Origin: Thermoplasmata archaeon
GTDB taxonomy: Archaea; Thermoplasmatota; Thermoplasmata; UBA10834
Assembly (NCBI GenBank): GCA_041550275.1
Contig: JBFEPA010000002.1
Span: 1 to 32,144, forward strand
DNA length: 32,144 nt
Direction: 5' to 3'
The notes below the pieces were generated by a model. It did not search any database. It saw nothing but the letters and a program-made list of their open reading frames with translations, and had not been told where the DNA came from. Positions 10,587-32,144 of the stretch are shown here, piece by piece. The translations under genes and the position numbers were made by a program. How positions within the stretch are numbered: position 1 is the stretch's first letter; the number at the start of each line of letters is the position of its first letter.

Positions 10587-10588
10587 TG

Positions 10589-13624: not shown

Positions 13625-15216
13625 CGGATGAAGGCTTCGAGCCAAACATAGTCGCCTTCTGCTGCAACTGGTGCTCCTACGCCGGCGCAGATCTGGCAGG
13701 TGTCAGCAGGATGCAGTACCCTCCGAACGCGCGAATAATACGCGTCATGTGCTCGGGCAGGATAGAACCATACTTCGTGCTCAGGGCGCTCGAGCTCGGC
13801 GCTGACGGTGTGCTCGTCGCGGGATGCCACATAGGTGACTGTCACTACATCTCCGGGAATGTCGAGGCGGAGAAGAGGATGAAAGCCACGCAGGAGATGC
13901 TGGACGTGGTAGGCATTGGGAGAGACCGCATGAGACTGGAATGGATTTCCGCCTCCGAGGGACAGAAATTCGCCTCGACGATGAAGGAGTTCACAGACAG
14001 TATCCGCGAGCTAGGCCCCAACCCGATGCCAAGGCTTGCGAAGAAAGTGTACGACCCCGCCAAGCTGAAGTCGAGAGTCGATCACCTGATCGAGGACACT
14101 GGTGCCTTTGACTGCGTCGAGTGCGGCAAGTGCACGACGGTATGCCCGGTAGCCAAGTACGATTCGGAGTTCGCGCCCAGGACCATCGTGCTGAAGGCGA
14201 CGGAGGGACAGGCAGATTCAATCGTCGCCAGCAAAGATATCTGGACCTGCATCACATGTGAACAGTGCAACTCGATGTGCCCGTACAAGGTAGACTACTC
14301 TGGATTCATAAGAGGACTGAGAACCGAAGCTGCGGCAAAGGATGCAACGCCCGCCTGCAGTCAGGGCGGCCTCATGCAGGGGATGATGCGCATACAGGCG
14401 CACGGCGACTTCAAGCAGAACAGGCTGGGATGGCTGACCCCGGAGTTGAAGATCGCGGACAAGGGCGACGTATTCTACTTCACTGGATGCGTAGCGTATT
14501 TCGATGCCGTCTTCAGCGACAGAGAGCTCAACCTCGCTGGCATACCACAGGCGGTAGTCAAGATAATGAACAGCGCTGGCATTACCCCAGTCGTGAGCAA
14601 CGACGAGGTGTGTTGCGGACACGATCTTAACTGGACTGGCGACGAGGAGGGGCTGCAGCGGCTCATGAAGAAGAATGTGGAGGTCATCAAAGCCTCCGGA
14701 GCGAAGACCGTCGTGTTCTCGTGCCCTGAGTGTATGAGGACCTTCGATATGGACTATCAGGACTTCTTGGGTGACTTCGACTTCGAGATGACCCACGTGT
14801 CCGAGTTCGTTGACAATCTAATCCAAGATGGGAAACTGAAGTTCAAGAAGGGCAGTGACAAGCTAACCTTCCAGGATTCGTGCAGACTCGGCAGGCACCT
14901 TGGTATCTACGACCCGCCGAGGAACGCCATGAAGGGCGTCGGAGCGAATGTCGTGGAGATGGAGAACACGAGAGACAAGGCGATATGCTGCGGTGTGAGT
15001 TCTTGGGCCACATGCGACGATATTGCGCGCAAGCTGCAGGTGGAGAGGTTGAAAGAGGCGAAGAAGACTGGAGCTGACTGCCTTGTCACGGGATGCTACA
15101 AGTGTCTGATCCATCTGGCTTGTGCCCGAGACAACAAGCTCGAAGGAGTGCCTAAGGATCAGGTAGACATCAAGATCAAGGACCTCAGTGTAGCGATAGC
15201 GGAGGCGTTGGAATGA
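13621..15216 (+). CDS. MvhD::HdrC-like::HdrB-like (HdrD-type, two CCG domains) triple fusion
   Basis: Residues 1-~135 are MvhD ([32 protein letters not shown]). They are followed by [12 protein letters not shown] / [12 protein letters not shown] (HdrC-like). Then come two CCG sets (FTGC, VCCGHD, SCPEC; DSCRLG, ICCGVSS, TGCYKC). ATGA overlap with the upstream gene. Confidence 0.85.
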
Positions 15217-15262
15217 CGGATTGGATGGGCGGTGCTCATCGCACAAGACTCGCCATCACCCA

Positions 15263-15278
15263 AACGAAACACATAAAA
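15263..15278 (+). promoter_or_regulatory. Candidate internal BRE/TATA-like box (AACGAAAC-AC-ATAAAA)
   Basis: Lies in the only sizeable gap (158 nt) inside the gene train. It shares the AACGAAAC 8-mer with the box at 6408-6415, followed by an A/T-rich hexamer. Confidence 0.25.
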
Positions 15279-15374
15279 GAAGAGACTCAATACCGCAAAG
15301 GCAAAAGGGGTTCGTTGATTGCAGTAGGCACAATGCAAATGCAACTGAATATGAGATTTGAAGGGGGCTTTTGA

Positions 15375-18080
15375 GTGAAGAAATCCGTAATGGTGATTGG
15401 AGGCGGAATTGCCGGAATACAGGCTGCTTTGGACCTAGCCGACAAGGGAATCACGGTCGACCTCGTCGAGAAGATGCCAAGCATTGGCGGAAGAATGGCA
15501 CAGTTGGACAAGACATTCCCTACGAACGACTGCTCGATATGCATACTGGCGCCGAAGATGGCGGACTGCTACGCGCACCCCAACATCAACGTGATGACCT
15601 ACTCGGAGGTAAAGGACATTTCTGGAAAGGCCGGGGATTTCAAGGTTGACGTGCTCAAGAAGGCCAGGTTCGTTGACGAGGAGAAGTGCACGGGTTGTGG
15701 CGACTGCTTCAAGGTGTGCCCTGTCAGCCTCCCGAACGAGTTCGACATGGACATGAGGGAGAGACCTGCCATATACATGCCGTTTCTCCAGTCAGTTCCG
15801 AGAACGGCTACCATAGACAGGGCGGGCGTCGCGCCGTGCTCCGACAAGTGCCCAGCGGGTTTGAGCGCTCAGGGATATGTGGCACTCATACGGGCCGAGA
15901 AGTTCAAGGAAGCGGTGGACCTCATACGAAGGACTATCCCCCTCCCCTCGGTGTGTGGACGCATATGCCATCACCCGTGCGAGGAAGGCTGCAACAGAAC
16001 GGAAGTCGACGATCCAGTGGCCATCGCAGGATTGAAGGCATTCGTGGGGGACTACGTTCGAGAGCAGGGTATGGACGCGCCAGTCCCGATCGAAGTGGAC
16101 CGGAAGGAGAAGGTCGCTGTTGTCGGAGCGGGCCCGGCTGGCCTGGCGGCAGCCTACCGCCTCGCCCTCAAAGGATTCAAAGTCAAGATTTTCGAGGCCA
16201 CGTCGAAGCCAGGTGGTATGCTCTGGTGGGGCATCCCCGATTACCGTCTTCCCAAGGACGTACTGTCAGCAGAGGTTGATCACCTGTTGGCCCATGGCAT
16301 AGAGATCGAGTACGGCAAGACCATCGGCAAGGACCTCACGATCGAGGACCTGAAGAGGGACTACGGCGCCGTCTTCCTGGCTATAGGTGCTCACAAGAGC
16401 CTCAAGCTGGACTTGCCTGGCGAGGACCTCGAAGGCGTCGTCCACGGCGTGGACTTCCTACACAAAGTCGCCGACAAGGAGAAGGTTAGAATCGGCAAGA
16501 AGGTGGCCGTTATAGGCGGAGGAAACGCCGCGATGGACGCTGCAAGAACAGCCCTGCGGATGGGCTCCGACGTGACGGTTATATACCGCCGGACGAAGGA
16601 CGAGATGCCCGCGATTGCGGCCGAGATCAAGGGGGCGGAAGACGAGGGCGTCAGATTCGAGTTCCTGGCATCGCCTGTGAAGATTGAGGGAAAGGGCGGC
16701 AAGATTACCGCCATCGAGTGCATCAGAATGAAGCTTGGAGAGCCGGACAAATCGGGCCGGCCCCGCCCAGTGCCGGTTGAAGGATCGGAATTCACGATCG
16801 AGGTCGACACGGTCATTCCGGCCGTTAGCCAGGCACCGAATCTGGACGCTCTCAGCTCGAAGGCCCTTGCTGTCACGAAGTGGAACACCCTCGAGGTCAA
16901 TCCTGGCAACCTGAGCACGAACATCGAAGGTGTCTTCGCGGGTGGAGATGCTGTGTCTGGACCTGCATCTGCCGTGGAGGCATTCGCAGCAGGCAACAAG
17001 GCCGCGCTGTACATCGAGAAGATGCTGAACGGAGAGAGCATCGAGCCGGAGCCCGAAGAGAAGGACGATCATGTCATCACGCTTGAAAACATCAAAGCAA
17101 GAATGAAGGGTGAGATCACGAAGAGCGAGCGCATCCTCAGGCAACACCTTTCGGACGACAAGCGCAGGACCTCCTTCGAGGAGGTCGAGAAGGTGTTCAC
17201 GAAGGAGGAGGCGATGAAGGAGGCGGCTCGATGTGTGAGCTGCGGACCATGCTCACAGTGTGAGGCGTGCGCCCCTGCCTGCGGTCCGAATGCAATTGAC
17301 TACAAGATGAAGGACAAGGTCGTCACAATGAACCCAGCGGCGATCATAGTCGCCACCGGCTTTGATGTATGGGACCCGACGCCCGCGTCAGAGTACGGCT
17401 ACAAGAAGTACCCCAACGTCTACACGGCGATGGAGTACGAGCGCATGATCAACGCTGCGGGGCCCACTGGCGGGCACATAGTCAGGCGATCCGACGGCGA
17501 ACACCCGAAGAAGCTGGCGTTCATACAGTGCGTAGGATCGAGAAATCCGCAGGTTGGGCATCCCTATTGTTGCGCGGTGTGCTGCATGCACGCCACAAAA
17601 GAGGCGATGCTCGCTCGGGAACACTACGAGGACATCAACTCAACGATATTCTACAAGGACATGAGAGCCTGTGCGAAGGGATTCAATGAATACGTCGAAA
17701 GGGCGAAAAGCGACTATGGAGTCAGCTACGTCAACTCCGACGCGACCGTGCAGGAGAACGCGCAGACGCACAACCCAGTCGTCGTATTCGACGTAGGAGG
17801 CAAGCAACAGTCGGAGGAGTTCGACGCGGTCGTGCTTGCGACCACACTCGTGCCCAGGAAAGATACCGTCGAATTGGCTGAGAAGCTCGGGCTGAAGCTG
17901 ACGGAATTCGGTTTCTTCGAGTCTCCAGACAGCATCCTGGACTTCGGCAGGAGCGAAGTGCCCGGGATATACCTTGCAGGATACTGCGCCGGACCGGCCG
18001 ACATACCGGAATCGGTTGCCCAGGGCTCAAGCGCCGCTGCCAAGGCAGCGGAGATACTCGCCAATTCAGGAGGGGGGTGA
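15375..18080 (+). CDS. HdrA-like FAD module with an inserted NfnB/GltD-like NAD(P)H:flavin module (HdrL-type; unit 3, first half)
   Basis: GTG start 7 nt after AAGGGGG. N-part [15 protein letters not shown]...[19 protein letters not shown] plus CTGCGDCFKVCP. Residues ~150-550 are GltD/NfnB-like (PLPSVCGRICHHPCEEGCNR, VVGAGPAGLAAAYRL, GGGNAAMDAART, FAGGDAV). The sequence then returns to HdrA (EYERMINAAGPTGGH, QCVGSRN...CCAVCC, GIYLAGYCAGPADIPESVAQ). No CHCG N-domain and no C-terminal ferredoxin. Confidence 0.85.
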   Translation: MKKSVMVIGGGIAGIQAALDLADKGITVDLVEKMPSIGGRMAQLDKTFPTNDCSICILAPKMADCYAHPNINVMTYSEVKDISGKAGDFKVDVLKKARFVDEEKCTGCGDCFKVCPVSLPNEFDMDMRERPAIYMPFLQSVPRTATIDRAGVAPCSDKCPAGLSAQGYVALIRAEKFKEAVDLIRRTIPLPSVCGRICHHPCEEGCNRTEVDDPVAIAGLKAFVGDYVREQGMDAPVPIEVDRKEKVAVVGAGPAGLAAAYRLALKGFKVKIFEATSKPGGMLWWGIPDYRLPKDVLSAEVDHLLAHGIEIEYGKTIGKDLTIEDLKRDYGAVFLAIGAHKSLKLDLPGEDLEGVVHGVDFLHKVADKEKVRIGKKVAVIGGGNAAMDAARTALRMGSDVTVIYRRTKDEMPAIAAEIKGAEDEGVRFEFLASPVKIEGKGGKITAIECIRMKLGEPDKSGRPRPVPVEGSEFTIEVDTVIPAVSQAPNLDALSSKALAVTKWNTLEVNPGNLSTNIEGVFAGGDAVSGPASAVEAFAAGNKAALYIEKMLNGESIEPEPEEKDDHVITLENIKARMKGEITKSERILRQHLSDDKRRTSFEEVEKVFTKEEAMKEAARCVSCGPCSQCEACAPACGPNAIDYKMKDKVVTMNPAAIIVATGFDVWDPTPASEYGYKKYPNVYTAMEYERMINAAGPTGGHIVRRSDGEHPKKLAFIQCVGSRNPQVGHPYCCAVCCMHATKEAMLAREHYEDINSTIFYKDMRACAKGFNEYVERAKSDYGVSYVNSDATVQENAQTHNPVVVFDVGGKQQSEEFDAVVLATTLVPRKDTVELAEKLGLKLTEFGFFESPDSILDFGRSEVPGIYLAGYCAGPADIPESVAQGSSAAAKAAEILANSGGG
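15822..17300 (+). other. Domain-level: NfnB/GltD-like insertion within the HdrA inserted-ferredoxin position
   Basis: Boundaries were estimated from where HdrA collinearity with the paralogues is lost (after TIDRAG) and regained (before MNPAAIIVATGFD). Confidence 0.6.
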
Positions 18081-18086: not shown

Positions 18087-19961
18087 ATGGCCGAGAACGC
18101 AAACAGTGAGAAGAAGAAGCCGCGGATAGGGGTATTCATATGCCACTGCGGGTCCAACATAGGCGGTTTTGTCGACGTGAAGGCCGTGACTGAGTATGCG
18201 GCAACCCTTCCGGACGTCGCATATGCGACCGACAATCTCTATACATGTGCCGAGGACGGCCTCAACAACATCAAGGAGAGCATCAAGGAGCACGACCTTG
18301 ACAGAGTAGTCGTATCGAGCTGCACACCACGGACGCACGCCCCGCTCTTCCAGCGCACGTGCGAGGCTGCTGGCGTGAACAAGTATATGTTCACATTCGT
18401 CAACATCCGTGAGCACTGCTCATGGGTCCACATGAAGGAGAGGGAGAAGGCGACCCAGAAGGCAAAGGACTTGGTCAGGATGGGCGTTGCGAGAGCCCGA
18501 TTCCTAGAACCTCAGGAGGAGACGAAGATCGATGTGACGCCCGCCGCACTCGTAGTAGGAGGAGGCGTGTCTGGGATGACGGCAGCGCTGTCACTTGCGA
18601 ACATGGGATTCCCTGTGCATCTCGTCGAGAAGGAAAAGGAGCTTGGAGGATTCGTGAAGAACCTGCACGGCCTCATGATGACCAAGAAGAACGCCAACGA
18701 GACGATCAAGCCGCTCATCGACAAGGTGAACGCCCAGAAGAACATCACCCAGTACCTCGATTCGCACGTCGCGACGGTTGAGGGATTCATAGGCAACTAC
18801 GATGTCTCCATTGGCGGAGAGGGGGCCGAGCCCAAGGAAGTCAAGGTGGGCACCATCATCGTGGCCACGGGCGCGGTTCCGCTGGTACCCGAGGGACTGT
18901 TTGGGTACAAGGAGCACCCGAACGTCGTCACATCCACGGAGTTCGAGGAACTCTGCAACAAGAAGGAGGTCCCCAGACTGAAGAGCGTCGCCTTCATACA
19001 ATGCGTTGGGGCGAGGGGACAGAAAGTCTCTTACTGCTCCAGGATCTGCTGCAATATCGCAGTCAAGACCGCGATAAACATCGCCGAGAACCGCGACAAC
19101 TTGCTGGGCGTGACAGAGGAGAAGGCGGATGCGGGTCAGGCCGTCGAAGAGCCAACCGCGGACATGAAGGCGGATGAAGAGGGAACGGAGCGAAGGCGGA
19201 GGAGAAGGGGCAGAGGACGGCGCGAGGACGACCAGGCCTCTGACGAAAGCGCTGCACCATCCAGTGGAGTCGAGATTACGGTGTTCAACAGGGACGTTAT
19301 GGCGTACGGTGTCGAACACGAGCTCGAGTTCAACAAGGCCAGGGAGAAGAGAGTCAAGTTCATCAGATACCTGCCAGACAACCTCCCGAAGGTATCTGCA
19401 AAGGACGGGAAGCTCGAGGTCGGATACTTCCACGAGACGCTGAAGATGGAGAGGACCATGCCGGTTGACATGGTCATACTCTCGACTCCGCTCGTATCGC
19501 AGCCGGACGCTGCCACACTATCGCAGCTACTCAAAGTACCGCTAGGACAAGATGGCTTCTTCCAGGAGGCGCACGTCAAACTGAGACCGGTCGATTTCGC
19601 GACCGATGGTGTCTACGTGTGCGGAACCTGCAGAGGGCCGGCCGACATAGCAGAGGCAGTCTCCCAGGCGGCCGCAGCTGCCTCGAGGGCAGCGATACCT
19701 CTCGCGAACGGCTTCGTCCAGGCCGAGGCCCTCACGTCGAGGGTCGATGAGACGAAATGCACAGGCTGCGGGACTTGCGTCGAGGTGTGCCCGTACGGCG
19801 CTCTCAGGAAGAACGATGAGGGCATCAGCGAGGTGATCGTAGCAGCGTGCAAGGGTTGTGGTGCCTGCGGTGCCACGTGCCCGGAGAGTGCAATCACTAT
19901 GACGCATTACACGGACCAGCAACTGCTTGCTGAGGCCAAGGCGGCCTTGGAGGAGGTGTGA
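18087..19961 (+). CDS. Second-half-type HdrA (CHCG N-domain + Rossmann + C-terminal ferredoxin) with a charged disordered insert (unit 3, second half)
   Basis: RIGVFICHCGSNIGG...SCTPRTH...REHCSWVH, VVGGGVSGMTAALSLANMGFPVHLVEK, QCVGARG...CSRICC, CTGCGTCVEVCP / CKGCGACGATCP. Collinear with the C-halves of the two tandem proteins. ATG lies 6 nt after the hdrL-type stop, behind GGAGGGGGG. Confidence 0.85.
   Translation: MAENANSEKKKPRIGVFICHCGSNIGGFVDVKAVTEYAATLPDVAYATDNLYTCAEDGLNNIKESIKEHDLDRVVVSSCTPRTHAPLFQRTCEAAGVNKYMFTFVNIREHCSWVHMKEREKATQKAKDLVRMGVARARFLEPQEETKIDVTPAALVVGGGVSGMTAALSLANMGFPVHLVEKEKELGGFVKNLHGLMMTKKNANETIKPLIDKVNAQKNITQYLDSHVATVEGFIGNYDVSIGGEGAEPKEVKVGTIIVATGAVPLVPEGLFGYKEHPNVVTSTEFEELCNKKEVPRLKSVAFIQCVGARGQKVSYCSRICCNIAVKTAINIAENRDNLLGVTEEKADAGQAVEEPTADMKADEEGTERRRRRRGRGRREDDQASDESAAPSSGVEITVFNRDVMAYGVEHELEFNKAREKRVKFIRYLPDNLPKVSAKDGKLEVGYFHETLKMERTMPVDMVILSTPLVSQPDAATLSQLLKVPLGQDGFFQEAHVKLRPVDFATDGVYVCGTCRGPADIAEAVSQAAAAASRAAIPLANGFVQAEALTSRVDETKCTGCGTCVEVCPYGALRKNDEGISEVIVAACKGCGACGATCPESAITMTHYTDQQLLAEAKAALEEV
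19089..19268 (+). other. Domain-level: ~60-aa low-complexity acidic/Arg-rich insertion (…EEKADAGQAVEEPTADMKADEEGTERRRRRRGRGRREDDQASDESAAPSSG)
   Basis: It is in frame. Both flanks align to the paralogues, where only a short GYPDTD / KNPDAE loop occupies this position. Confidence 0.7.
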
Positions 19962-19965: not shown

Positions 19966-20790
19966 ATGACGCAGAAGCATCACACCGCTCACCACGGCAA
20001 GAAGCACGAGACTGACAATGAGTGGGAGCCGAAGATCGTCGGTTTCCTCTGCAACTGGTGCTCGTACGCCGGCGCTGACCTGTGTGGCGTCAGCAGGTTC
20101 CAGTATCCGACGAACATACGCCTCGTCAGAGTGATGTGCTCTACGCGAGTCAGCCCACACCTCGTGCTCGATGTCTTCGAGGCAGGCGCGGACGGCATAC
20201 TCGTTGGAGGATGTCACATCAACGACTGTCACTACATGACCGGCAACTTCCACACTGAGAAGCGCGTGAACCTCATGAAGAGGCTGCTCAAAGAGGCTGG
20301 GATAGACGAGAGCCGATTGAGACTCGAGTGGGTCTCCGCATCCGAAGGGGAGAAGTTCTCCAAGGTGGTCACGGAATTCACAGAGGAGATCCAGAAGCTG
20401 GGACCGAGTCAAGTGCTCTCGGACGACATGGTGAAGACGAAGATCTCGGCCGCTGACGACGCCTCCGAGACATTCAGATTGAAAGCCCTGGTGGGTAAGG
20501 AGTTCAACCTCCTTACTAAGGGGAACGCATACGGTGAGAAGCTGGACCCTGACAAACTCGCGGGCATCATCGATGCCGCTGCTGAGGACGAGTTCGAAAG
20601 GGCGCTCATACTGGAGCTTGCGAGGATAAGGCCCATGTCGGTCAAGCAGTTGGGAATGGTTATGGACGTCCCGACAGACAAGATACTCAGGCACATCGTT
20701 CTGCTCAGGCAGAACAGCAAGATTGCGATGGAACATCCAGAGGGATTCACTCCGGTATACAAGACCATCGCTATTGGAGGTGAGCAGTGA
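19966..20790 (+). CDS. MvhD-type subunit, copy 3, with His-rich N-tail and C-terminal winged-helix-like extension
   Basis: N-tail MTQKHHTAHHGKKH. MvhD core ([33 protein letters not shown]). A ~127-aa Cys-free extension is homologous to ORF 24286-24669. ATG lies 4 nt after the upstream stop, with a GGAGGAGGTG SD. Confidence 0.85.
   Translation: MTQKHHTAHHGKKHETDNEWEPKIVGFLCNWCSYAGADLCGVSRFQYPTNIRLVRVMCSTRVSPHLVLDVFEAGADGILVGGCHINDCHYMTGNFHTEKRVNLMKRLLKEAGIDESRLRLEWVSASEGEKFSKVVTEFTEEIQKLGPSQVLSDDMVKTKISAADDASETFRLKALVGKEFNLLTKGNAYGEKLDPDKLAGIIDAAAEDEFERALILELARIRPMSVKQLGMVMDVPTDKILRHIVLLRQNSKIAMEHPEGFTPVYKTIAIGGEQ
20407..20787 (+). other. Domain-level: winged-helix-like C-terminal extension of MvhD copy 3
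   Basis: ERALILELARIRPMSVKQLGMVMDVPTDKILRHIVLLRQNSKIAMEHPEGFTPVYKTI has a helix / helix-turn-helix / beta-wing pattern. It aligns by eye with ELERNLLLLQMEQQSKTVHELHDATGIPKPEIVHHIIALKRWRMVEQVGTTGQSPQYKAV of the free ORF. Confidence 0.55.
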
Positions 20791-23700
20791 TGGCAGCAAG
20801 TGACAAGGTCGGTGCAGTCATGGTGGTTGGAGGCGGCATATCGGGCCTGCAGTCCTCCCTTGATCTGGCCGATTCTGGATTCAAGGTATATCTCGTTGAG
20901 AAGCAACCCAGCATAGGCGGCACGATGGCCCAGCTGGACAAGACATTCCCCACGAACGACTGTGCCATGTGCATTATGGCGCCCAAACTCGTGTCGACGG
21001 GGAGACACCACAACATCGAGTTGGTGACGAATGCTGACATCCTGGCGGTGGAAGGCAAGGCGGGCGATTTCACGGTCACCGTCAAGCAGAGGGCGTTGAG
21101 GGTTGACCCCACCAAGTGCACTGGCTGTGGCTCGTGCGCTCAGACCTGCCCGATCGAGACCTCCGATGAGTACAACGAGAGCACGAAGATACGCAAGGCG
21201 ATCTATGTTCGGTACCCACAGGCGGTCCCGCTGGTATACTCCATCGACAAGGACAAGTGCATAGGCTGCGGCATATGCGCAGAGGAGTGCAAGGCCAAAG
21301 CAGTCGTCTATGATCAGGAGGAGAGCACCTCGGAGATCAAAGTGGGCTCGATCATCCTCTCGCCCGGCTTCGACGAGTTCAACGCGCGTCTGAAGGGGGA
21401 ATACGGATACGGCGTCTACAAGAACGTCGTCAACAGCATAGAGTTCGAGAGGATGCTCAGCGCCACGGGACCGTACTTCGGCACAGTCATGCGTCCCTCG
21501 GACGGCGACATCCCGGAGAAGATAGCTTTCATACAATGTGTCGGCTCCAGAGACGAGCAGGTGGGAAACGAGTACTGCTCAGGCGTCTGCTGCATGTACT
21601 CGATCAAGGAGGCCATAATAGCCAAGGAGCATGGAGGGAATATCAAACCCAAGATATTCTTCATGGACATGAGGGCGTTTGGCAAGGAATTCGATGAGTA
21701 CTACAACAGAGCGCAGAACGAGTACGGCATCGAGTTCGTGCGCTCGAGAGTCGCATCCGTATTCGAAGACCCCGAAACGAAGAATCTGATCGTGAAATAC
21801 GTCGAGAAGGGGGAGCCGAAGGAAGAGGAGTTCGGCCTCGTGATCCTTGCCGTAGGCCTCAGGCCACCGGCGGATGCCGAGGCTCTCAGCAAGGTCATTG
21901 GATTCGAGCTGAACTCAGACGGGTTCTGCAAGACGACGACGCTAGAACCGGTCAGTTCCTCGAAGGCAGGCGTCTTCGTCAGCGGCGCATTCTCATCGCC
22001 CAAGGACATCCCGATGACCGTTGCCGAGGCGAGCGGAGCCGCTGCGAAGGCGGCCACGGAGATAGCGTCTGCGAGGGACAGCCTCGTCACCAAGAAGGAA
22101 TACCCAGCGGAGCTGGACATAACAGATCAGGAACCGAGGATAGGCGTGTTCGTATGTCATTGCGGCATAAACATCGGAGGCGTCGTCAAGGTGCCCTCCG
22201 TAACGGAGTATGCCCGGACCCTGCCGAACGTCGCGTACGCTGAAGAGAACCTGTACACGTGCTCCCAGGACACTCAGGAGAAGATCAAGGAGATGATCAA
22301 GGAGCACGACCTCAACCGGGTCGTGGTAGCGAGCTGCACTCCACGGACGCATGAGCCGCTGTTCCAGAACACGATAAAGGAGGCGGGTCTGAACTCGTAC
22401 CTGTTCGAGATGGCGAACATACGCGACCAGTGCTCGTGGATTCACATGCACGAGGCCGAGTCGGCTACGAAGAAGGCGAAGGACCTCGTTCGGATGGCCG
22501 TTGCGAAGGCCCGGTTGCTCGAGCCGCTGGAGAACCTGACCATCGACGTCAACCAGCAGGCGCTGGTGATAGGTGGAGGCGCCACGGGGATGGCTGCCGC
22601 CCTTGAGCTGGCGAAGCAGGGAGTAAAGGTCCACCTGGTCGAGAAGGAGAAGGAGCTCGGAGGCAACATGCGCAAGCTACACTATCTGCCGTCCGGAGAG
22701 GACCCGACGGAGCACGCTGAGGCGATGGCCAGGGAGGTCACCTCCAACGGCAACATCACCGTGCACACGGGAACCGGCATCAAGATGATCGAAGGATACG
22801 TGGGCAACTTCAAGACAGCGCTGGAGAGCGGAGAGGAGATAGAGCATGGCGCTGTGATACTGGCGGTGGGAGGACAGGAGTACAAGCCGAAGGGAGAGTA
22901 CCTTTATGGCGAGAACCCCAACGTCCTCACTCTCCTCGAGTTCAAGGAGAAGCTGAAGAAAGGTGAGGCAAAGGGTGATTCGTATGTGTTCATCCAGTGC
23001 GTCGGCTCGCGTGAGGAAGGCCACCCGAACTGTTCGCGCGTATGCTGCACGGGCACGATGACCGCGGCGATAAAGATTAAGGAGAAGAACCCCGACGCCG
23101 AGGTGTACGTCCTCTACAGGGACATACGGACATACGGCTTCAGAGAGGCCTACTACAAGGACGCCGCCGAGAAGGGCGTCACGTTCATCAGGTTCGAGGA
23201 CGACGTCAAACCGAAGGTCGAGGACAAGGGAGGCAAGCTGCAGGTGACCGTCACGGACGAGGACACTGACAAGGAGGTTGTGCTGACATCTGACTACCTG
23301 GTACTCGCATCGGGAACACGACCATACCCAGAGTCGGAGGCGCTCGCGCCGATGCTCAAGGTCCCGATGACCAAGGAGGGCTTCTTCCTGGAGGCGCATA
23401 TGAAGCTGAGGCCAGTAGATTTCGCAACTGAGGGAGTGTATCTAGCAGGCCTGTCGCACGGCCCCAAGTTCCTCGATGAGAGCATCGGACAGGGGTTGGC
23501 TGCAGTCGCGCGCGCGATGACGATCCTGTCGAAGAAGACGCTCGAAGCGGAAGGCATCGTGGCAAGTGTGGACGAGACGCTTTGCGACGGATGCGGCATA
23601 TGCGTCCCGACGTGCGAGTACAAGGCGCTCGAAATCATCGCCGACAAGAAGGATGAGACGAAGAAGACTCTGGACCTCAACATCGGCCTGTGTAAGGGCT

Positions 23701-23828
23701 GCGGCGCGTGCGTTGGCTCATGCCCATCGGGCGCGCTCACGCAGAAAGGATTCAGGGATGAGCAGATCGTCGCCATGATCGATGCAGCGCTTGAGGATGA
23801 TGCGGAGAAGCAGGAGGTGAGGCAATGA
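20790..23828 (+). CDS. Tandem (double-module) HdrA-like flavo-iron-sulfur protein, copy 2 (unit 4)
   Basis: Same layout as 10589-13624. N-half VVGGGISGLQSSLDL...[19 protein letters not shown] plus inserted ferredoxin. C-half [49 protein letters not shown]...CSRVCC, C-terminal CDGCGICVPTC / CKGCGACVGSCP. ATG overlaps the upstream TGA (TGATG), with a GGAGGTGA SD. Confidence 0.88.
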   Translation: MAASDKVGAVMVVGGGISGLQSSLDLADSGFKVYLVEKQPSIGGTMAQLDKTFPTNDCAMCIMAPKLVSTGRHHNIELVTNADILAVEGKAGDFTVTVKQRALRVDPTKCTGCGSCAQTCPIETSDEYNESTKIRKAIYVRYPQAVPLVYSIDKDKCIGCGICAEECKAKAVVYDQEESTSEIKVGSIILSPGFDEFNARLKGEYGYGVYKNVVNSIEFERMLSATGPYFGTVMRPSDGDIPEKIAFIQCVGSRDEQVGNEYCSGVCCMYSIKEAIIAKEHGGNIKPKIFFMDMRAFGKEFDEYYNRAQNEYGIEFVRSRVASVFEDPETKNLIVKYVEKGEPKEEEFGLVILAVGLRPPADAEALSKVIGFELNSDGFCKTTTLEPVSSSKAGVFVSGAFSSPKDIPMTVAEASGAAAKAATEIASARDSLVTKKEYPAELDITDQEPRIGVFVCHCGINIGGVVKVPSVTEYARTLPNVAYAEENLYTCSQDTQEKIKEMIKEHDLNRVVVASCTPRTHEPLFQNTIKEAGLNSYLFEMANIRDQCSWIHMHEAESATKKAKDLVRMAVAKARLLEPLENLTIDVNQQALVIGGGATGMAAALELAKQGVKVHLVEKEKELGGNMRKLHYLPSGEDPTEHAEAMAREVTSNGNITVHTGTGIKMIEGYVGNFKTALESGEEIEHGAVILAVGGQEYKPKGEYLYGENPNVLTLLEFKEKLKKGEAKGDSYVFIQCVGSREEGHPNCSRVCCTGTMTAAIKIKEKNPDAEVYVLYRDIRTYGFREAYYKDAAEKGVTFIRFEDDVKPKVEDKGGKLQVTVTDEDTDKEVVLTSDYLVLASGTRPYPESEALAPMLKVPMTKEGFFLEAHMKLRPVDFATEGVYLAGLSHGPKFLDESIGQGLAAVARAMTILSKKTLEAEGIVASVDETLCDGCGICVPTCEYKALEIIADKKDETKKTLDLNIGLCKGCGACVGSCPSGALTQKGFRDEQIVAMIDAALEDDAEKQEVRQ

Positions 23829-24283
23829 GCAGCGCAACGCCCAACGCCGGTGGTCAGCCCAAGGCGGAGGAAGAGGATTTCGAGCCGAAGATAATCGTGT
23901 TCTGCTGCAACTGGTGTTCATACGCTGGCGCTGACCTCGCAGGGGTCAGCAGGCTGCAGATGCCCCCGTACTTCAGGGTGATAAGGGTCATGTGCTCTGC
24001 TAGAGTCGACCCTGAGTTCGTCCTGAGGGCGATTCAGAAGGGGGCAGATGGAGTCCTCGTCGCAGGATGTCATCCAGCGGACTGCCACTACATCGGAGGT
24101 AACTACAGGACGCGGAGGAGAGTTGCGCTCCTTCAGATGCTGCTCCAGCAGTTCGGCTATGACCCTGGCAGGCTTAAACTGGAATGGATATCCGCTGGTG
24201 AGGGAGAGAAATTCCAGAAGACCATTGTCGAGTTCACGAACACGATCAACGAGCTAGGGCCGTCTCCGATGGGTGGTGACTGA
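23825..24283 (+). CDS. mvhD: MvhD-type [2Fe-2S] subunit, copy 4 (adjacent to the hydrogenase genes)
   Basis: [38 protein letters not shown] overlap with the upstream gene. Confidence 0.9.
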   Translation: MSSATPNAGGQPKAEEEDFEPKIIVFCCNWCSYAGADLAGVSRLQMPPYFRVIRVMCSARVDPEFVLRAIQKGADGVLVAGCHPADCHYIGGNYRTRRRVALLQMLLQQFGYDPGRLKLEWISAGEGEKFQKTIVEFTNTINELGPSPMGGD

Positions 24284-24285: not shown

Positions 24286-24669
24286 ATGACACCGAGGGAC
24301 GGTAGGATCAGGGCGGCGCTGAGGACGCTCGAGGGTGAGCGCATAAGGTGGCTCCTTGGTAAGAAAGAGATGCTTACGACGGGTGAGAACGTGTTCGGCG
24401 AGACAATCACTGACGCGAGATACAGCTTCATACTCCAGAAGGCGGCCGCTGTGGAACTGGAGCGGAACTTGCTGCTTCTTCAGATGGAGCAGCAGTCCAA
24501 GACCGTGCATGAACTGCACGACGCCACAGGCATACCGAAGCCAGAGATCGTCCATCACATCATCGCCCTCAAGAGATGGAGGATGGTCGAGCAGGTCGGC
24601 ACGACGGGGCAGTCGCCGCAGTACAAGGCTGTTCCCAAAAGCATATCCTCGGATGAGGAGGTGAGCTGA
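24286..24669 (+). CDS. Small Cys-free winged-helix-like protein of unknown function (free homologue of the MvhD copy 3 extension)
   Basis: 127-aa ORF tightly coupled on both sides (2 nt after the mvhD stop, 1 nt before the mvhG ATG), with a GGTGGTGA SD. wHTH-like pattern in the C-terminal half. No match to a named family that I can recognise. Confidence 0.7.
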   Translation: MTPRDGRIRAALRTLEGERIRWLLGKKEMLTTGENVFGETITDARYSFILQKAAAVELERNLLLLQMEQQSKTVHELHDATGIPKPEIVHHIIALKRWRMVEQVGTTGQSPQYKAVPKSISSDEEVS

Positions 24670-24670: not shown

Positions 24671-25687
24671 ATGGCAGACAAGATTAAGATTGCGCAGTAC
24701 TGGGGCGCTGGATGCGGAGGATGCGACGTCGCCCTGCTGGACATAGACGCGAAGATACTGGATGTACACGCCATTGCCGAGGTGGTCTTCTGGCCAATCG
24801 GGTTCGACGGCAAGCTCTCCGAGATAGAGGCGATGCCTGACAAGTCGATCACGGTGTCGTTCTACAACGGCGCGATAAGGAACAGCGAGAACGAGCATGT
24901 CGCGAAGGTGCTTCGAGAGAAGTCTGCGGTCATGATAGCATTCGGATCTTGCGCATGTTTCGGCGGAACGCCAGGCTTGGCGAACGTGACGAACAGGGAG
25001 GAGATCTTCCAGACTGTGTACAAGGACACCGTTTCCACTGACAACCCTGACTTCGTGACGCCACAAACGCATTGCACGGTTCCAGAGGGCGAGGTTGACC
25101 TCCCTGTGTTCTATGAAAGCGTCAAGACGCTCGACGAGGTCGTGGATGTTGACTACTTCATGCCTGGATGCCCACCAACGGTGAACCTCATCGCTTTGGC
25201 GGTCGACGCGGTGGCAAAGCATGTTACGGAAGGCGCGGACCTGCCTCCGAAGGGCACCATCATCGCCTCGGACAAGACGCTTTGCGACGAATGTGACCGC
25301 GAACGCGTCGAGAAGGATAGGCGAATCGAGAGGATCTACCAGTCGTACGAGATCAAGGCGGATCCGAAGAAGTGCCTTCTCGACCAGGGAATCATCTGCA
25401 TAGGCCCCGCGACGAGAGCTGGCTGCGGATCCATGTGTCCGAAAGCCAACATGCCCTGCAGGGGATGCATGGGCCCGACGAAGGCCGTCATGGACCACGG
25501 TGGAAGCATGCTGAGCGCACTGTCGTCGCTCCTGAATATCACAGATTCGGAGTCAAAGTTAAGTGAGGAGCAGATAATGGAACTAATGATGCAGGTGAAG
25601 GATCCGCTCGGAACCTTCTATGCCTTCACGCTCCCGAAGTCGCTGCTCAAGAGGACTGTGACCGAGAAGCGCAAGAAGAAGGGGTGA
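24671..25687 (+). CDS. mvhG: MvhG, small subunit of F420-non-reducing (Mvh-type) [NiFe] hydrogenase
   Basis: N-terminal WGAGCGGCDVALLD proximal-cluster motif, GSCACFGG, MPGCPP, and C-terminal CIGPATRAGCGSMCP...PCRGCMGP cluster motifs. Confidence 0.92.
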   Translation: MADKIKIAQYWGAGCGGCDVALLDIDAKILDVHAIAEVVFWPIGFDGKLSEIEAMPDKSITVSFYNGAIRNSENEHVAKVLREKSAVMIAFGSCACFGGTPGLANVTNREEIFQTVYKDTVSTDNPDFVTPQTHCTVPEGEVDLPVFYESVKTLDEVVDVDYFMPGCPPTVNLIALAVDAVAKHVTEGADLPPKGTIIASDKTLCDECDRERVEKDRRIERIYQSYEIKADPKKCLLDQGIICIGPATRAGCGSMCPKANMPCRGCMGPTKAVMDHGGSMLSALSSLLNITDSESKLSEEQIMELMMQVKDPLGTFYAFTLPKSLLKRTVTEKRKKKG

Positions 25688-27207
25688 TGCACATGCCAGG
25701 ACCAATAATCAACGACACAACGACGAAGACTACGGAGAAGAAGCTGACGATTGACCCAATCACGAGGCTCGAGGGACACGGCAAGATAGAGATATTCCTG
25801 AACGACCAGGGCAACGTGGCGAATGCATATCTCCAGGTCCCCGAACTCAGAGGATTCGAACGCTTCTGCATCGGCAGGCATGTGCAAGAACTACCCGTGC
25901 TGACCAACAGGTTGTGTGGCGTTTGTCCTGCGGCGCATCACATCGCGTCGACGAAGGCTCTCGACGCGGTGTTCAACGCAGAACCCACTGAGACTGCGAA
26001 GAAGCTCAGGGAGCTGTTCTACATGGGACAGTATACCCACAGCCACATAGCACACTTCTACGCCCTAGCTGCGCCTGACTTCGTGCTCGGACCGTCCGCA
26101 CCGGCCAACAAAAGGAACGTCCTAGGTGTAGTCGACGCCGTGGGTGTAGAGATCGGCGGAGAGGTCATCAAGCACAGGTCGTACGGTCAGAAGGTTCAGG
26201 AGATCGTCGGCGGAAGGGCGACTCATCCGTGCTTCGGTCTTCCAGGCGGAGTGTCCAAGCAGATAAGCGAGGAAGAGCGCGCCCAGATGGAAGAGATGGC
26301 GAAGTCCTGCGTCGAGTTCGGGAAGTTCACCGTGAAGCTCTTTCACGATGTCGTGCTGGCCAATCAGGATTACATGAACCTTGTCCTGAACCAGGACGCA
26401 TACTATCTCGAATCGTACTACATGGGCATGGTTGACAAGAACAACAAGTCGAACTTCTACGACGGTGACATCCGCGTGGTGGACCAGACTGGCAAGGAGG
26501 TAGTGAAGTTCAAGCCGAGCGAGTATCTCGATGTCATCGCAGAACACGTCGAGCCTTGGACTTACATGAAGATGCCGTTCCTGAAGCAGGTGGGATGGAA
26601 AGGCTTCTCCGTCGGCCCGTCAAGTGGAATCTACAGAGTCGGACCGCTCGGCAGAATCAACGTTTGCGAGGGTTACACGACACCGCTTGCTCAAGCCGAA
26701 TACGCGGCACTGGCGAAGACGGTAAAAGACCTGGGAGTGACAGGACCAGTCCATCACACACTCGCGTACCACTGGGCGAGGGTGGTCGAGCTGCAGTACG
26801 CCACAGAGAGGATGCTCGAGCTGGCGAGCGACAAGAGCATTACGAGCGACGATACCCGTGGCGAAGTCAACGAACCCACAGAAGGCGTCGGCATATGCGA
26901 GGCACCGAGGGGGACTCTGATACACCACTATGCCTCAGATAAGGAAGGGCTGTGCACGATGATTAACATGATCGTGGCTACGACGAACAACTACGCTGCC
27001 ATCAATACCAGTATCACCCAGGCGGCGAAGGCGCTGATCAGGAATTGGGAGATCTCCCCCGGCCTGCTGAACAAGGTCGAGATGGCGTTCCGATGCTACG
27101 ACCCGTGCAACTCATGCGGGACTCATGCGCTCAACGGTTCGCCCGCGCTGGAGATAGCGGTGCGGCGCGCAGACGGGTCCACACTCGAGAGGCAGAGAAA
27201 CTTCTGA
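25687..27207 (+). CDS. mvhA: MvhA, large subunit of Mvh-type [NiFe] hydrogenase
   Basis: TRLEGHGKIEI, N-terminal ligand motif RLCGVCPAAHH, and C-terminal DPCNSCGTH followed by a 26-residue tail (a protease-cleaved extension is expected). Start is ambiguous among GTG 25684, ATG 25687 and ATG 25693. Confidence 0.93.
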   Translation: MHMPGPIINDTTTKTTEKKLTIDPITRLEGHGKIEIFLNDQGNVANAYLQVPELRGFERFCIGRHVQELPVLTNRLCGVCPAAHHIASTKALDAVFNAEPTETAKKLRELFYMGQYTHSHIAHFYALAAPDFVLGPSAPANKRNVLGVVDAVGVEIGGEVIKHRSYGQKVQEIVGGRATHPCFGLPGGVSKQISEEERAQMEEMAKSCVEFGKFTVKLFHDVVLANQDYMNLVLNQDAYYLESYYMGMVDKNNKSNFYDGDIRVVDQTGKEVVKFKPSEYLDVIAEHVEPWTYMKMPFLKQVGWKGFSVGPSSGIYRVGPLGRINVCEGYTTPLAQAEYAALAKTVKDLGVTGPVHHTLAYHWARVVELQYATERMLELASDKSITSDDTRGEVNEPTEGVGICEAPRGTLIHHYASDKEGLCTMINMIVATTNNYAAINTSITQAAKALIRNWEISPGLLNKVEMAFRCYDPCNSCGTHALNGSPALEIAVRRADGSTLERQRNF

Positions 27208-27219: not shown

Positions 27220-27252
27220 CGAGGGGAAACCCCCCTCGACAACATGTTTTTT
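27220..27252 (+). terminator. Hairpin CGAGGGG-aaacc-CCCCTCG followed by a T6 run (terminator/attenuator-like)
   Basis: A 7-bp perfect stem (27220-27226 / 27232-27238) begins 13 nt after the mvhA stop. T6 lies at 27247-27252; oligo-T tracts are the usual archaeal termination signal. Confidence 0.35.
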
Positions 27253-27282
27253 AAGTTCAACCAGGATGAGAGGACCGACTCC

Positions 27283-27768
27283 ATGACTCAAACCGAGGAT
27301 CCGAACGCAAAGAAGACTCTTGTGGTAGGTGTCGGCAACCCCATACTCTCGGATGATGGCGTGGGGATTCACATCGCGAGGAGACTCAGGGAGATGGGAA
27401 TCTCCGGCATCGATGTCGAGGAGCTGCCAGCGAGCGGGCTGGAACTGCTGGACATGGTCCTCGACTACGACCGCGTAGTCATCATAGATGCCATAAGGAC
27501 TGAGGGAGGCACCCCGGGACAGTTCTACATCCTGGAGGAGAGCGATTTCGAGAGGACCGTTCACGGCGCCTCACCGCACGGGATTAACATAGCCACGGCT
27601 TTGGCCCTCGGGAGACAGCTGGTAAACGACAGGATGCCGACCGATACGCAGTTCATCGCGATCGAGGTGGCAGACATAGTCAATGTCAGCGAGAGCATGA
27701 CACCTGCAGTGGCAGCGGCGGTCCAATTGGTCGTTGACAAGGTCGTGGCCGAACTGAGCAAGCCATAA
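27283..27768 (+). CDS. [NiFe]-hydrogenase maturation endopeptidase (HycI/HybD/FrhD family)
   Basis: LVVGVGNPILSDDGVG, VVIIDAI and HGASPHG motifs. ATG 27283 is preferred because it has a GAGAGG SD and lies downstream of the hairpin/T6. ATG 27244, which contains the T6, is the alternative. Confidence 0.85.
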   Translation: MTQTEDPNAKKTLVVGVGNPILSDDGVGIHIARRLREMGISGIDVEELPASGLELLDMVLDYDRVVIIDAIRTEGGTPGQFYILEESDFERTVHGASPHGINIATALALGRQLVNDRMPTDTQFIAIEVADIVNVSESMTPAVAAAVQLVVDKVVAELSKP

Positions 27769-27787: not shown

Positions 27788-28834
27788 TCAGCATATTCTT
27801 GGAACCGGGTCGCCAACGGGGGGCTCGATGATGCGCTTTCCTCCCGTATGAGTCTCGAGCATAACCCCGTCGAAATCTGCTGATGCAGCACCGACAATGC
27901 ACGCGCCTCGTCCCTCTGGCGTGGCCTTGACTGCCCTGAGAACCTCCTCAGCAGCCTCGGGGACGACCGCAATGACGACCTTGCCCTCGTTGCCTATCTC
28001 CAGCGGGTCGATCCCCAGCATCTCGCAGGCGGAGAGCACGCCTTCATCCAAGGGAAGGTCCTCCTCCCTGACAGATATCCCCACCGATGATTTATCAGCC
28101 CATTCGTTGAGCAGATTGGCAACGCCTCCTCTCGTGGGATCCTTCATGGCAACGACACCTCCCACTCTCAAGGCTGCCTCGATCAGCTTGTTGAGAGGGG
28201 CAGCGTCGGTCTTCACGGTCGTCTCGAACCCGTATCCTTCACGAAAAGACAGGAGGGCGACGCCATGGTTGCCTATCGGTCCTGACACGATCAGCATATC
28301 CCCTTCGAAGATGGCAGAGTCGTTCGGCCAGTTCCAAGCGTACTCCCGCGACGCACGCACGCGTTCGAGATTCCCGTCGAGATATTCGGAGCGCTTGCCG
28401 ATGCCGCTGGTATTGATGAAGAGGCGGTCCGCGGCCCCCTTCTCTACCACTTTGGTATCGCCGGTAACTATCCTCACATCTGCTCTTCGGGCCGTGTCAC
28501 TCATGCTTCGCATGATTGTGTGGAGTTCGTCGGACGAGAACCCTTCCTCGATAATCATCCCACATGACAGAGCCAACGGTCTGGCGCCCATCACAGATAC
28601 ATCGTTGACCGTGCCCGCGACGGAAAGGAGGCCTATGTCCCCTCCCGGGAAGAAGAGTGGTTTGACGGTGTAAGAATCCGTCGTGAACACGATCCCTTCG
28701 ATCACGGCAGCGTCATCCAAGGCTGAGAGGGGTATCTCACCGCTATCGTGCTCCAGCTCTTTGAGTATGAACTCCTTGATGAACTCCAACATCCCCTCTC
28801 CGCCCGCTCCTTGGGCCATTGTGATCTTCGACAT
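27788..28834 (-). CDS. hypE: HypE (thiocyanate-forming maturation ATPase)
   Basis: N-terminal ITMAQGAGGEG, AIR-synthase-like body and the diagnostic C-terminal PRIC. ATG 28834 is preferred over the listed TTG at 28849. Confidence 0.92.
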   Translation of the reverse strand: MSKITMAQGAGGEGMLEFIKEFILKELEHDSGEIPLSALDDAAVIEGIVFTTDSYTVKPLFFPGGDIGLLSVAGTVNDVSVMGARPLALSCGMIIEEGFSSDELHTIMRSMSDTARRADVRIVTGDTKVVEKGAADRLFINTSGIGKRSEYLDGNLERVRASREYAWNWPNDSAIFEGDMLIVSGPIGNHGVALLSFREGYGFETTVKTDAAPLNKLIEAALRVGGVVAMKDPTRGGVANLLNEWADKSSVGISVREEDLPLDEGVLSACEMLGIDPLEIGNEGKVVIAVVPEAAEEVLRAVKATPEGRGACIVGAASADFDGVMLETHTGGKRIIEPPVGDPVPRIC

Positions 28835-28871
28835 CGTATTGTCTCGCAAGTGCTCGAAAATGCTAGGTGGC

Positions 28872-30916: not shown

Positions 30917-32144
30917 CTAATGACTCTCTGCTTTCGCACGGTAGCTATTGACTGGCACGTGGATTTCGAACCTTGCACCCTTTCCATGCTCACCGACCTC
31001 CCTTATCGTCATTTGACAGGTCTTGAGGAGCTCTCTGACCAAGTAGAGGCCGAGGCCCGTGCCCTTACCGACCCCTGCGTCGAAAATCGTTTCCTTCTCC
31101 TGTGGAGGCACCCCCACGCCATCATCCGAGTAGACGATTCTGAGGCCATCATCCTGCTCTTCAGCCTCAACCGTGATCTGCCTGGAATGCTGGCCGTGCT
31201 TGATTGTGTTCGTGAACAGGTTCTGGAACACCTTGCTGAACATTGGATCGGCGAGAATCTCAAAGTCATGAACACTACACTCAACCTCGAGGTTACCAGC
31301 GCTAATAGCCGATTGGGCTTCTGAACACGCATTGCGAAGATCGATCCATTCCAACGGGGCCGTCCCTATCCGTTCGTATTCGGCTGCGAACTCCATCTGA
31401 GATTGGAGAGCGTCGACGGCTGTTTGCATGTTCGATGCCAGCTTTGCCATTTCCGCGAATTCCTTTTGCTCCGTTGCCAACGCCAACCATCCTTGGAGAA
31501 TCATGAGCTGGTTTAGGGTATCATGTCTGGTGAGGTTTCCGAGTAACCTGAGCTTCTCGTTGGCCGTTCTCAACGCTGATTCGACCCGGCGCATGTCAGT
31601 GACATCAATCGACATGCCACCTAGCAACTTCGAATGGGAAGCGATGTCCGTCATCGGGAATTTAATTGTGAGATATTCGTGGACGCCATCCTCTTGGGGA
31701 ACGACCTCAATCAGACTCAGGCCCTTGCATTCATTAAGTACGCGCGAATCATCCCCCTGAGAGCGGCGGGCGGCTTCCCCTGGCCAGATGTCCATGTCCG
31801 TGCGTCCGATAATCTTGTCTTCACCCGTTCTGAAGAATTCTGTGAAACGACGATTGACGAATGTGTATTGCCCTTCAGCATCCTTTATGAAGGCGAAGAA
31901 GGGGCAGTTGTCCATGAACAGCTTAAACTGCTCCTCCATCCCTCTGATGGATGCAACATCGCGCTCGTGAACGACCGCCATCGCGTATATGTGGGCGAGT
32001 TGGGAGATGACCTCGATGTCGCCTGTCGAGTATCCCTGTGGGGAATTGGCCAGTGATATCTGCCCGACGAGTCTATCCCCGATTATGACTGGAACTGATA
32101 GAAAGCTCTCGAGTTCGATATGACCCTCGGGCAGGCCGACGGAC
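30917..32144 (-). CDS. GAF-PAS sensor histidine kinase, N-terminus beyond the window
   Basis: The frame stays open upstream of the listed Met (31981) to nt 32144 and reads like a GAF C-terminus (LSVPVIIGDRLVGQISLANSPQGYSTGDIEV). Then comes PAS (FMDNCPFFAFIKDAEGQYTFVNRRF), the H-box LTRHDTLNQL, the N-box FQNLFTNTIKHG and G-boxes DDGVG / GTGLGLYLV. Confidence 0.85.
   Translation of the reverse strand, partial: SVGLPEGHIELESFLSVPVIIGDRLVGQISLANSPQGYSTGDIEVISQLAHIYAMAVVHERDVASIRGMEEQFKLFMDNCPFFAFIKDAEGQYTFVNRRFTEFFRTGEDKIIGRTDMDIWPGEAARRSQGDDSRVLNECKGLSLIEVVPQEDGVHEYLTIKFPMTDIASHSKLLGGMSIDVTDMRRVESALRTANEKLRLLGNLTRHDTLNQLMILQGWLALATEQKEFAEMAKLASNMQTAVDALQSQMEFAAEYERIGTAPLEWIDLRNACSEAQSAISAGNLEVECSVHDFEILADPMFSKVFQNLFTNTIKHGQHSRQITVEAEEQDDGLRIVYSDDGVGVPPQEKETIFDAGVGKGTGLGLYLVRELLKTCQMTIREVGEHGKGARFEIHVPVNSYRAKAESH

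Follow-up and report, generated by a model that had tools for sequence, protein, structure and literature searches.

What a small, cysteine-free protein is doing in the middle of an [NiFe]-hydrogenase operon is the question raised by a free-standing gene, here called X, in a stretch of Thermoplasmata archaeon DNA (the window; 32,144 nt in all), where it lies between mvhD and mvhG. It belongs to a block that runs, in order, split tandem HdrA, MvhD-X, 1013-aa HdrA, MvhD copy 4, X, MvhG, MvhA, HycI:

15375 to 18080, + strand: N-terminal part of an HdrA, "type III" (901 aa), with an inserted GltD-like NAD(P)H module
18087 to 19961, + strand: HdrA-like C-terminal part (624 aa), directly upstream of MvhD-X
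19966 to 20790, + strand: long MvhD copy 3, consisting of FlpD, linker and X
20787 to 23828, + strand: tandem HdrA, "type II" and BamE-like (1013 aa), with two thioredoxin-reductase cores
23825 to 24283, + strand: short MvhD copy 4 (152 aa), FlpD domain
24286 to 24669, + strand: free-standing X module (ATG start, 127 aa), between mvhD and mvhG
24671 to 25687, + strand: MvhG/VhuG-like [NiFe]-hydrogenase small subunit
25684 to 27207, + strand: MvhA/VhuA-like [NiFe]-hydrogenase large subunit
27244 to 27768, + strand: HycI-type hydrogenase maturation protease, the last gene of the conserved block

The 901-aa and 624-aa genes together make up a split tandem HdrA upstream of MvhD-X copy 3, and the 1013-aa tandem HdrA sits between this long MvhD and the short copy 4. 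The 624-aa product has a low-complexity charged insert (…EEGTERRRRRRGRGRREDDQASDESAAPSS…) at about residues 345–400. Further upstream, a first tandem HdrA (10586-13624) is directly followed by a 531-aa fusion (13621-15216) of MvhD (FlpD), an HdrC-like 4Fe-4S part and an HdrB-like CCG part, a composition like that of BamD plus MvhD. Hydrogenase maturation genes (HypB-like of the CobW family, HypF, HypC, HypA, and HypD) occupy 1601-6188, and an AIR-synthase-type (HypE-like) gene lies downstream on the other strand (27788-28849, - strand); the Hyp genes on both sides of the hdr/mvh block form a near-complete [NiFe]-hydrogenase maturation set. A PAS/histidine-kinase gene is found at 30917-31981 (- strand).

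A preliminary description of this locus had reported a 127-aa ORF with a Shine-Dalgarno sequence, 2 nt past the mvhD stop and 1 nt before mvhG, and had proposed that its translation is coupled to that of the hydrogenase genes. Both points hold. The TGA stop of mvhD copy 4 is at 24281-24283 and the X ATG follows after a 2-nt gap, at 24286; a Shine-Dalgarno-like GGTGGTGA run is found at 24272-24279, 6 nt 5′ of this ATG. At the other end, a single base separates the X stop codon (24667-24669) from the mvhG ATG at 24671, and the Shine-Dalgarno sequence of mvhG is encoded within the final X codons (GAGGAGGTGAGC). The disordered C-terminal tail of X (24650-24669, and its counterpart in homologues) has a conserved ending, …E-V-S or …E-V-A; the mvhG Shine-Dalgarno sequence that overlaps it, rather than protein function, is probably what keeps this ending constant. 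X is a real, conserved gene and not a chance ORF, since it has 141 close homologues (123–130 aa long) in Thermoplasmata/Thermoplasmatota MAGs and is under purifying selection (dN/dS 0.15–0.19 for the window copy compared with those of loci L001 and L004). A six-frame scan of the window found exactly two copies of the X module, and four FlpD domains.

The protein has two parts:

Residues 1 to 55: N-terminal helical part, with a RIRWLLGK...ENVFGE motif
Residues 55 to 116: winged helix-turn-helix, with a disordered tail after it

The window copy contains no cysteines by count, as had been claimed, and four histidines, with a pI of 8.1; favouring a structural adaptor, as the preliminary description did, over a part in thiol or Fe-S chemistry was reasonable. 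Pfam HTH_5 matches residues 60-102 with 26.2 bits (cut-off 22), HTH_IclR is slightly under threshold, and the NCBIfam model for an ArsR/SmtB subfamily, NF033788, gives 20.2 bits against a cut-off of 55; Pfam and NCBIfam have no model for the X module as such. An AF2 model of X, made from a 19-sequence alignment (mean pLDDT 80, above 90 at residues 55–115), has helices at 43-69, 74-81, and 85-97 and a beta hairpin at 101-115, after which there is nothing but the disordered tail, and so no post-wing helix. Foldseek searches with this model matched ArsR/SmtB and Z-alpha winged helices. The HTH_5 match, the confident part of the model and the Foldseek matches all agree with the winged-helix C-terminal half proposed from the letters of the sequence.

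Two identities suggested by fold were considered and dropped. The likeness to Z-alpha (Z-DNA binding) domains was set aside as generic winged-helix similarity. DsrC also has an HTH-like fold; a DsrC/TusE-like thiol carrier was ruled out, X having no Cys and no C-terminal arm.

Positions A10, A11, R19, L23, K26, E57, R60, V74, H91, P111, and Y113 are invariant in the family alignment. The strongest conservation of the family is in the N-terminal, non-HTH segment (RLRWLxGK...GNVYGE), while the recognition-helix motif (VLRHIxxLRxKGL) is still ArsR-like. H91, within an HTH helix, is the sole conserved His; there is no conserved Cys/His cluster, and family members have a mean of 0.45 Cys per domain, none of them conserved. 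Most members (64%) are acidic, with a median pI of 6.3. X is an accessory module of ~115 aa, composed of a short helical motif segment and an ArsR-derived winged helix.

The second copy of this module in the window forms the end of MvhD copy 3. The ORF of copy 3 opens with a TTG at 19927, but the ATG at 19966, directly past the upstream stop, is the likely start; in the 287-aa ORF, FlpD covers residues 37–159 and is followed by 128 aa with the winged helix, the X part spanning about 20425-20787. The homology between X and this C-terminus, already pointed out in the preliminary description, was recovered (29% identity over 110 aa, E = 3e-12), and in the family alignment it runs end to end, covering the whole module and not the winged helix alone. 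The AF2 model of the fused protein (57-sequence alignment) has a pLDDT of 91 and a pTM of 0.86, so that FlpD, helical linker and winged helix are modelled as one body; the chain ends 7 residues past the beta hairpin. Its N-terminal half superposes on solved MvhD chains with TM scores of 0.93–0.97, and no solved chain among the PDB fold matches spans both halves.

Copy 4, by comparison, stops at an "ELGPSP" linker, the exact point at which the fused forms run on into X. In the window, as at L001 and L004, copy 4 and X are read in different frames; the split is therefore an old gene fission, not a sequencing break. Read-through or frameshifting that would join copy 4 to X was ruled out, given the different frames and the start and Shine-Dalgarno sequence that each gene has of its own. 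Most likely, then, X is a split-off copy of the winged-helix domain that is normally fused to the end of MvhD.

How general the fused arrangement is can be judged from the X family, defined here by full-length matches to its own profile: a domain of ~110–120 aa consisting of a segment of RLRWLxGK/GNVYGE type and a winged helix. The window ORF scores 204 bits against this profile (positions 1-127) and the fused copy 3 scores 165 bits (positions 2-122). An exhaustive profile search gave 314 clusters (at 50% identity) with E up to 1e-3, 171 of them with E up to 1e-10; together with the 141 close homologues, these do away with the "orphan" status initially given to X. (A word-based search with the fused domain had found only 7 fragments, and when the search was repeated with a 116-sequence alignment, a single deltaproteobacterial group with Sec made up most of the result.) Among the best 150 of the 314 representatives, 77 have FlpD/MvhD directly N-terminal of X, with a linker of ~10 residues; 67 are short and without FlpD, and 6 have other architectures. 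Genomic loci were collected in two scans: one of GTDB species genomes with a single conserved motif ([EKV]GNVYGEK), yielding 48 loci, and one of metagenomes with the pattern GNKYGE[VRK]F, yielding 80 loci of a second subgroup. X is fused to FlpD in 40 of 52 cases at the GTDB loci and in 70 of 76 at the metagenome loci. The Rosetta-stone link to MvhD, proposed on the basis of copy 3, is thus far more general than had been suspected.

Many of the bacterial "free" X copies are in fact artefacts, because an in-frame selenocysteine TGA breaks the MvhD-X gene. In L005 and L007, a TGA within the sequence GG(U)HxGDCHY splits an MvhD-X of ~250 aa; as a result of such breaks, gene callers report 66-aa FlpD fragments and 117–163-aa "hypothetical" or "ArsR" proteins. 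Both MvhD-X and the neighbouring tandem hdrA are broken by TGA codons in L005 (9743-10492), in L007 (9599-10354) and in most of L065-L144, and the in-frame TGA codons of these bacterial genes are evidently selenocysteines. Several close homologues of X are labelled "ArsR family transcriptional regulator" in public records.

X is also found inside large redox polypeptides: HdrA-MvhD-X (810 aa), ferredoxin-MvhD-X, MvhD-X-GltD/HdrA (P0260, 744 aa), and HdrA-MvhD-X-HdrA/GltD (P0266, 1737 aa). In these megafusions (P0266, P0260, and L144 from 5360 on), one chain combines HdrA, MvhD and X with an HdrA part that contains a GltD insert. As a Rosetta-stone hint, they suggest that MvhD-X and a GltD-type NAD(P)H module may belong to one complex.

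The loci found in the GTDB scan are spread over archaea (Bathyarchaeia, Hadarchaeota, Thermoplasmata, Methanomassiliicoccales, Odinarchaeota, and Archaeoglobi) and other groups (Chloroflexi, Thermodesulfobacteriota, Syntrophobacterales, WOR-3, and Bacillota), and their gene order is nearly constant: a tandem HdrA, often in two parts of about 435 and 560–620 aa; MvhD-X; a second tandem HdrA of ~1000 aa; a short MvhD; and a variable module. A tandem HdrA comes directly after MvhD-X in 34 of 42 cases, and MvhG comes after the X module in 2 of 42. The variable module is HdrC-HdrB-MvhG-MvhA in Bathyarchaeia; Flx-like FrhB/Fer4_22/NAD-binding genes plus HdrCB in Archaeoglobi and Bacillota; MetV-MetF in Deltaproteobacteria; and X-MvhG-MvhA in the lineage of the window (L001-L004, L015, L026). 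The block in the window conforms to this overall order. In the metagenome subgroup, 46 of 49 X modules have a GltD-like NAD(P)H oxidoreductase downstream, together with a conserved protein of ~295 aa. The genes upstream encode an HdrD-like protein and a split tandem HdrA. The ~295-aa protein (L059-L144; e.g., L059:12590-13471), whose gene always comes directly after the GltD-like gene downstream of MvhD-X, has no Pfam match and is weakly similar to part of HdrA. The homologues form a conserved family associated with FlpD/MvhD and HdrA genes.

The clade of the window X consists of genuinely free copies: its members are 41–76% identical and none has FlpD, while fused copies are at most 35% identical to the window X. 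The arrangement MvhD-X-MvhG-MvhA-HycI is kept in MAGs of Thermoplasmata and Methanomassiliicoccaceae down to 42% X identity; this lowest value is that of L061, where MvhG is 73% identical and the MvhD-X-MvhG context is intact. Overall, free copies are found after mvhD, or before hdrC-hdrB, hdrA or mvhG. In L063 (8001-9736), a free copy of 114 aa without the GNVYGE loop comes first in an X-hdrC-hdrB operon, which is divergent from a CCG-domain gene and adjoins an hdrA/mvhD cluster; in L145 and L146 a free X precedes hdrA, after an intergenic gap, and in L062 one follows a polyferredoxin gene. The earlier statement that MvhDs beside HdrB/C lack X accordingly stands for the window (its units 1 and 2) but fails as a general rule, given the X-hdrC-hdrB order of L063. 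A Methanomassiliicoccales MAG (L025:3358-4870) has a tandem HdrA-MvhD-MvhG-MvhA block without a free X, so free X must have been gained or lost within the class. Since MvhD is joined to MvhGA without X in canonical Mvh, in the Bathyarchaeia loci and in L025, X is not required for hydrogenase docking generally.

A fairly likely explanation, and the one preferred here, is that X arose from an MvhD adaptor domain by gene fission and is present stoichiometrically as a subunit of the Thermoplasmata Hdr-Mvh complex. It is taken to be an adaptor docking domain because the X family shares the architecture, neighbourhood and bacterial selenocysteine of BamF, a subunit of class II benzoyl-CoA reductase discussed below. 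In most organisms, X would be a C-terminal extension of one MvhD paralogue in tandem-HdrA complexes; in the lineage of the window, the MvhD before the hydrogenase genes would have been split at the linker, giving two translationally coupled polypeptides, MvhD (152 aa) and X (127 aa), made together with MvhG and MvhA. X most likely rebinds MvhD copy 4, as in the fused form, and may offer a surface for protein-protein docking, by which the [2Fe-2S] adaptor MvhD would be held to a neighbouring module of the electron-bifurcating complex. By analogy with BamF and BamI, and by gene order, the partner of free X would be the [NiFe]-hydrogenase MvhGA; on the same two grounds, that of the X of fused copy 3 would be the GltD-type NAD(P)H module. 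Homology, the fused and split architectures, synteny, purifying selection and the fold were all observed; we infer from them the stoichiometric role of X, its packing on MvhD and its contact partner, and gene order, with X directly before mvhG, is only suggestive of an interface between X and the input module. A structural adaptor, the first role proposed in the preliminary description, is thus the best supported, but its specific idea that X docks MvhD onto HdrA finds no support here: in BamF, the one solved example, the winged helix touches the electron-input subunit BamI instead.

It is conceivable, if rather doubtful, that X does something further, as an exchangeable "plug" choosing which electron-input module is wired to the tandem-HdrA cores. 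These modules would be an [NiFe]-hydrogenase, a GltD-type NAD(P)H oxidoreductase, or NuoEFG/Fdh, and in the lineage of the window X would have been freed, so that one complex would have two plugs, one fused and one free. In a more radical variant, the free X would shuttle between the complex and DNA, coupling redox state to hdr/mvh transcription.

DNA binding is also central to the main alternative, namely that X is an ArsR-type regulator, co-transcribed with its targets and autoregulating the hdr/mvh operons; a fused MvhD-X would then act as a one-component redox sensor, with the MvhD [2Fe-2S] cluster as input and X as output domain. This is improbable. HTH_5 matches above its cut-off, with HTH_IclR slightly under, but NF033788 reaches just 20 bits of the 55 needed; ArsR/SmtB repressors are the best PDB sequence and fold matches, but the X model lacks the alpha5 dimerisation helix and the metal-site Cys; the recognition helix keeps the ArsR-like motif, but conservation is strongest outside the HTH; and the basic pI of the window X would suit a DNA-binding protein, but the family is mostly acidic. 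The ArsR names on close homologues in public records count in its favour, as do the free copies of L063 and L145, which head operons after an intergenic gap, a position that would suit a regulator too; against it, X lies mid-chain in redox enzymes of 744–1737 aa. Nor does copy 3 look like a sensor: its FlpD part is a complete MvhD (54% identity with that of 5ODC, TM 0.93), and it is the only MvhD encoded beside the upstream split HdrA. No palindrome is common to the intergenic regions 6150-6560 and 15180-15400, where one weak palindrome was found in the former and none in the latter. Finally, the winged helix of BamF is a protein interface. Binding of DNA by X is therefore unlikely, the redox-coupled DNA-binding alternative of the preliminary description fits poorly (X being mid-chain in polyproteins, conserved outside the HTH and below the NF033788 cut-off), and X probably belongs to the enzyme as a structural part instead of controlling genes.

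Two further roles would leave X a protein-binding domain but not a clamp between modules of the mature enzyme, and both fit less well because X is covalently fused in most lineages. If it were a chaperone that helps to assemble or mature the MvhD-MvhG interface or tandem-HdrA complexes, it would be required during biogenesis and missing from the finished enzyme; X would then be at home in a block with hyp maturation genes and hycI, could be dispensed with in L025 and in the Bathyarchaeia loci that keep MvhD-MvhG-MvhA, and might be expected to evolve faster than MvhG, as it does in L061 (42% vs. 73% identity). The covalent fusion to MvhD, however, implies a permanent 1:1 presence, and BamF retains its winged-helix domain in the mature, active complex; a chaperone role is thus quite improbable. 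Alternatively, X might be where a soluble partner or a substrate carrier docks, candidates being a ferredoxin, a thiol or protein substrate, and a membrane anchor. In favour of this, the free-X block (tandem HdrA, MvhD, X, MvhG, MvhA) lacks HdrB/C genes and so an evident electron acceptor, and HdrC-HdrB take the place of X in Bathyarchaeia. The idea seems very improbable: operons with HdrB/C also hold fused X copies, and X has no conserved Cys/His cluster, only H91 in an HTH helix.

If X is a structural subunit, as preferred here, its recognition has some practical consequences. Complexes built on tandem "type II" and GltD-inserted "type III" HdrAs occur widely among anaerobes not yet in culture (Thermoplasmata, Bathyarchaeia, Archaeoglobi, Asgard archaea, Chloroflexi, Desulfobacterota, and Bacillota) and are biochemically uncharacterised; a 2025 survey of HdrA diversity does not mention the X module. 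Recognising X corrects "ArsR transcriptional regulator" annotations, adds a subunit to metabolic reconstructions of tandem-HdrA complexes, and gives a handle on how input modules dock to bifurcating HdrA cores, tying archaeal operons to one structurally solved case, BamF of benzoyl-CoA reductase. It is useful for annotation, but no new principle.

Four kinds of known systems can be compared with X. The ArsR/SmtB regulators (SmtB, CzrA, NolR, HlyU, BigR, SqrR) have a winged-helix core and recognition-helix motif in common with it. They have a five-helix fold, in which a C-terminal alpha5 dimerisation helix follows the wing. X differs in having no post-wing helix, no metal or thiol ligands, and an extra conserved N-terminal segment and, unlike these regulators, is usually covalently attached to an Fe-S protein.

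The FlpD domains of copies 3 and 4 resemble those of canonical MvhD/VhuD (5ODC, 7BKB, 8RVU; E = 5e-53, 54% identity, TM 0.93–0.97), and the same role is expected for them as in the HdrABC-MvhAGD, Fdh-Hdr and Elp-Hdr systems, that of a [2Fe-2S] adaptor between input module and HdrA. Solved MvhD chains are just 129–141 aa long, X is absent from all of them, and the Pfam FlpD model ends where X starts. FlxD (in FlxABCD-HdrABC) and MvhD (in MetFV-HdrABC-MvhD) are adaptors that join modules of NAD(P)H or methylene-THF type to HdrA. Loci with Flx-like or MetVF genes also have an MvhD-X upstream of a tandem HdrA; the MvhD beside the Flx or MetVF genes is the short one, and the X-bearing MvhD is the other paralogue.

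The closest comparison is with BamF, the one long MvhD found described in the literature searched. BamF, part of the class II benzoyl-CoA reductase BamBCDEFGHI of Geobacter metallireducens (deposited models 29QY, 29RC, and 29RN), exceeds other MvhD adaptors in length by more than 100 aa and is described as two Rossmann-fold domains plus a winged helix (bioRxiv 10.64898/2026.04.10.717634). In the cryo-EM structure its winged helix-turn-helix interfaces with BamI, and BamF connects BamGHI, the input module, with the fused HdrA dimer BamE (bioRxiv 10.64898/2026.04.10.717634). An MvhD domain with a winged-helix extension of more than 100 aa is also the layout of copy 3, the two being compared by description alone; for the ORF studied here, this layout is reached only when MvhD copy 4 and X are taken together. 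The copy 3 model, in which a helical linker joins one alpha/beta domain to the winged helix, differs from BamF in the number of Rossmann-fold domains, two being described for the latter. PDB sequence searches with the X profile and the fused protein, and fold searches, returned short MvhD chains and generic winged helices only.

There are likenesses in gene neighbourhood too. The BamF gene adjoins that of the fused-dimer HdrA BamE, as MvhD-X and MvhD copy 4 plus X adjoin that of the 1013-aa tandem HdrA, and bacterial members of the X family are also selenoproteins encoded next to HdrD-like and tandem HdrA proteins, as in the Bam genes. The GTDB scan with [EKV]GNVYGEK included no Geobacter locus, and no full bamB-I cluster was present among the metagenome loci from the GNKYGE[VRK]F scan; one of these is AOR-linked (L136), with an AOR-family gene, an HdrD-like gene, a split tandem HdrA, and MvhD-X, which is the module order of bamB-D-E-F. 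There are also differences between the Bam system and the window: the BamF extension is in one chain with MvhD, while the window X is a separate, archaeal polypeptide, and the input module is the NuoEFG-like BamGHI in the former and the [NiFe]-hydrogenase, or for copy 3 a GltD-type module, in the latter. X as found here is probably a split, archaeal, hydrogenase-linked variant of a module structurally seen so far only in BamF.
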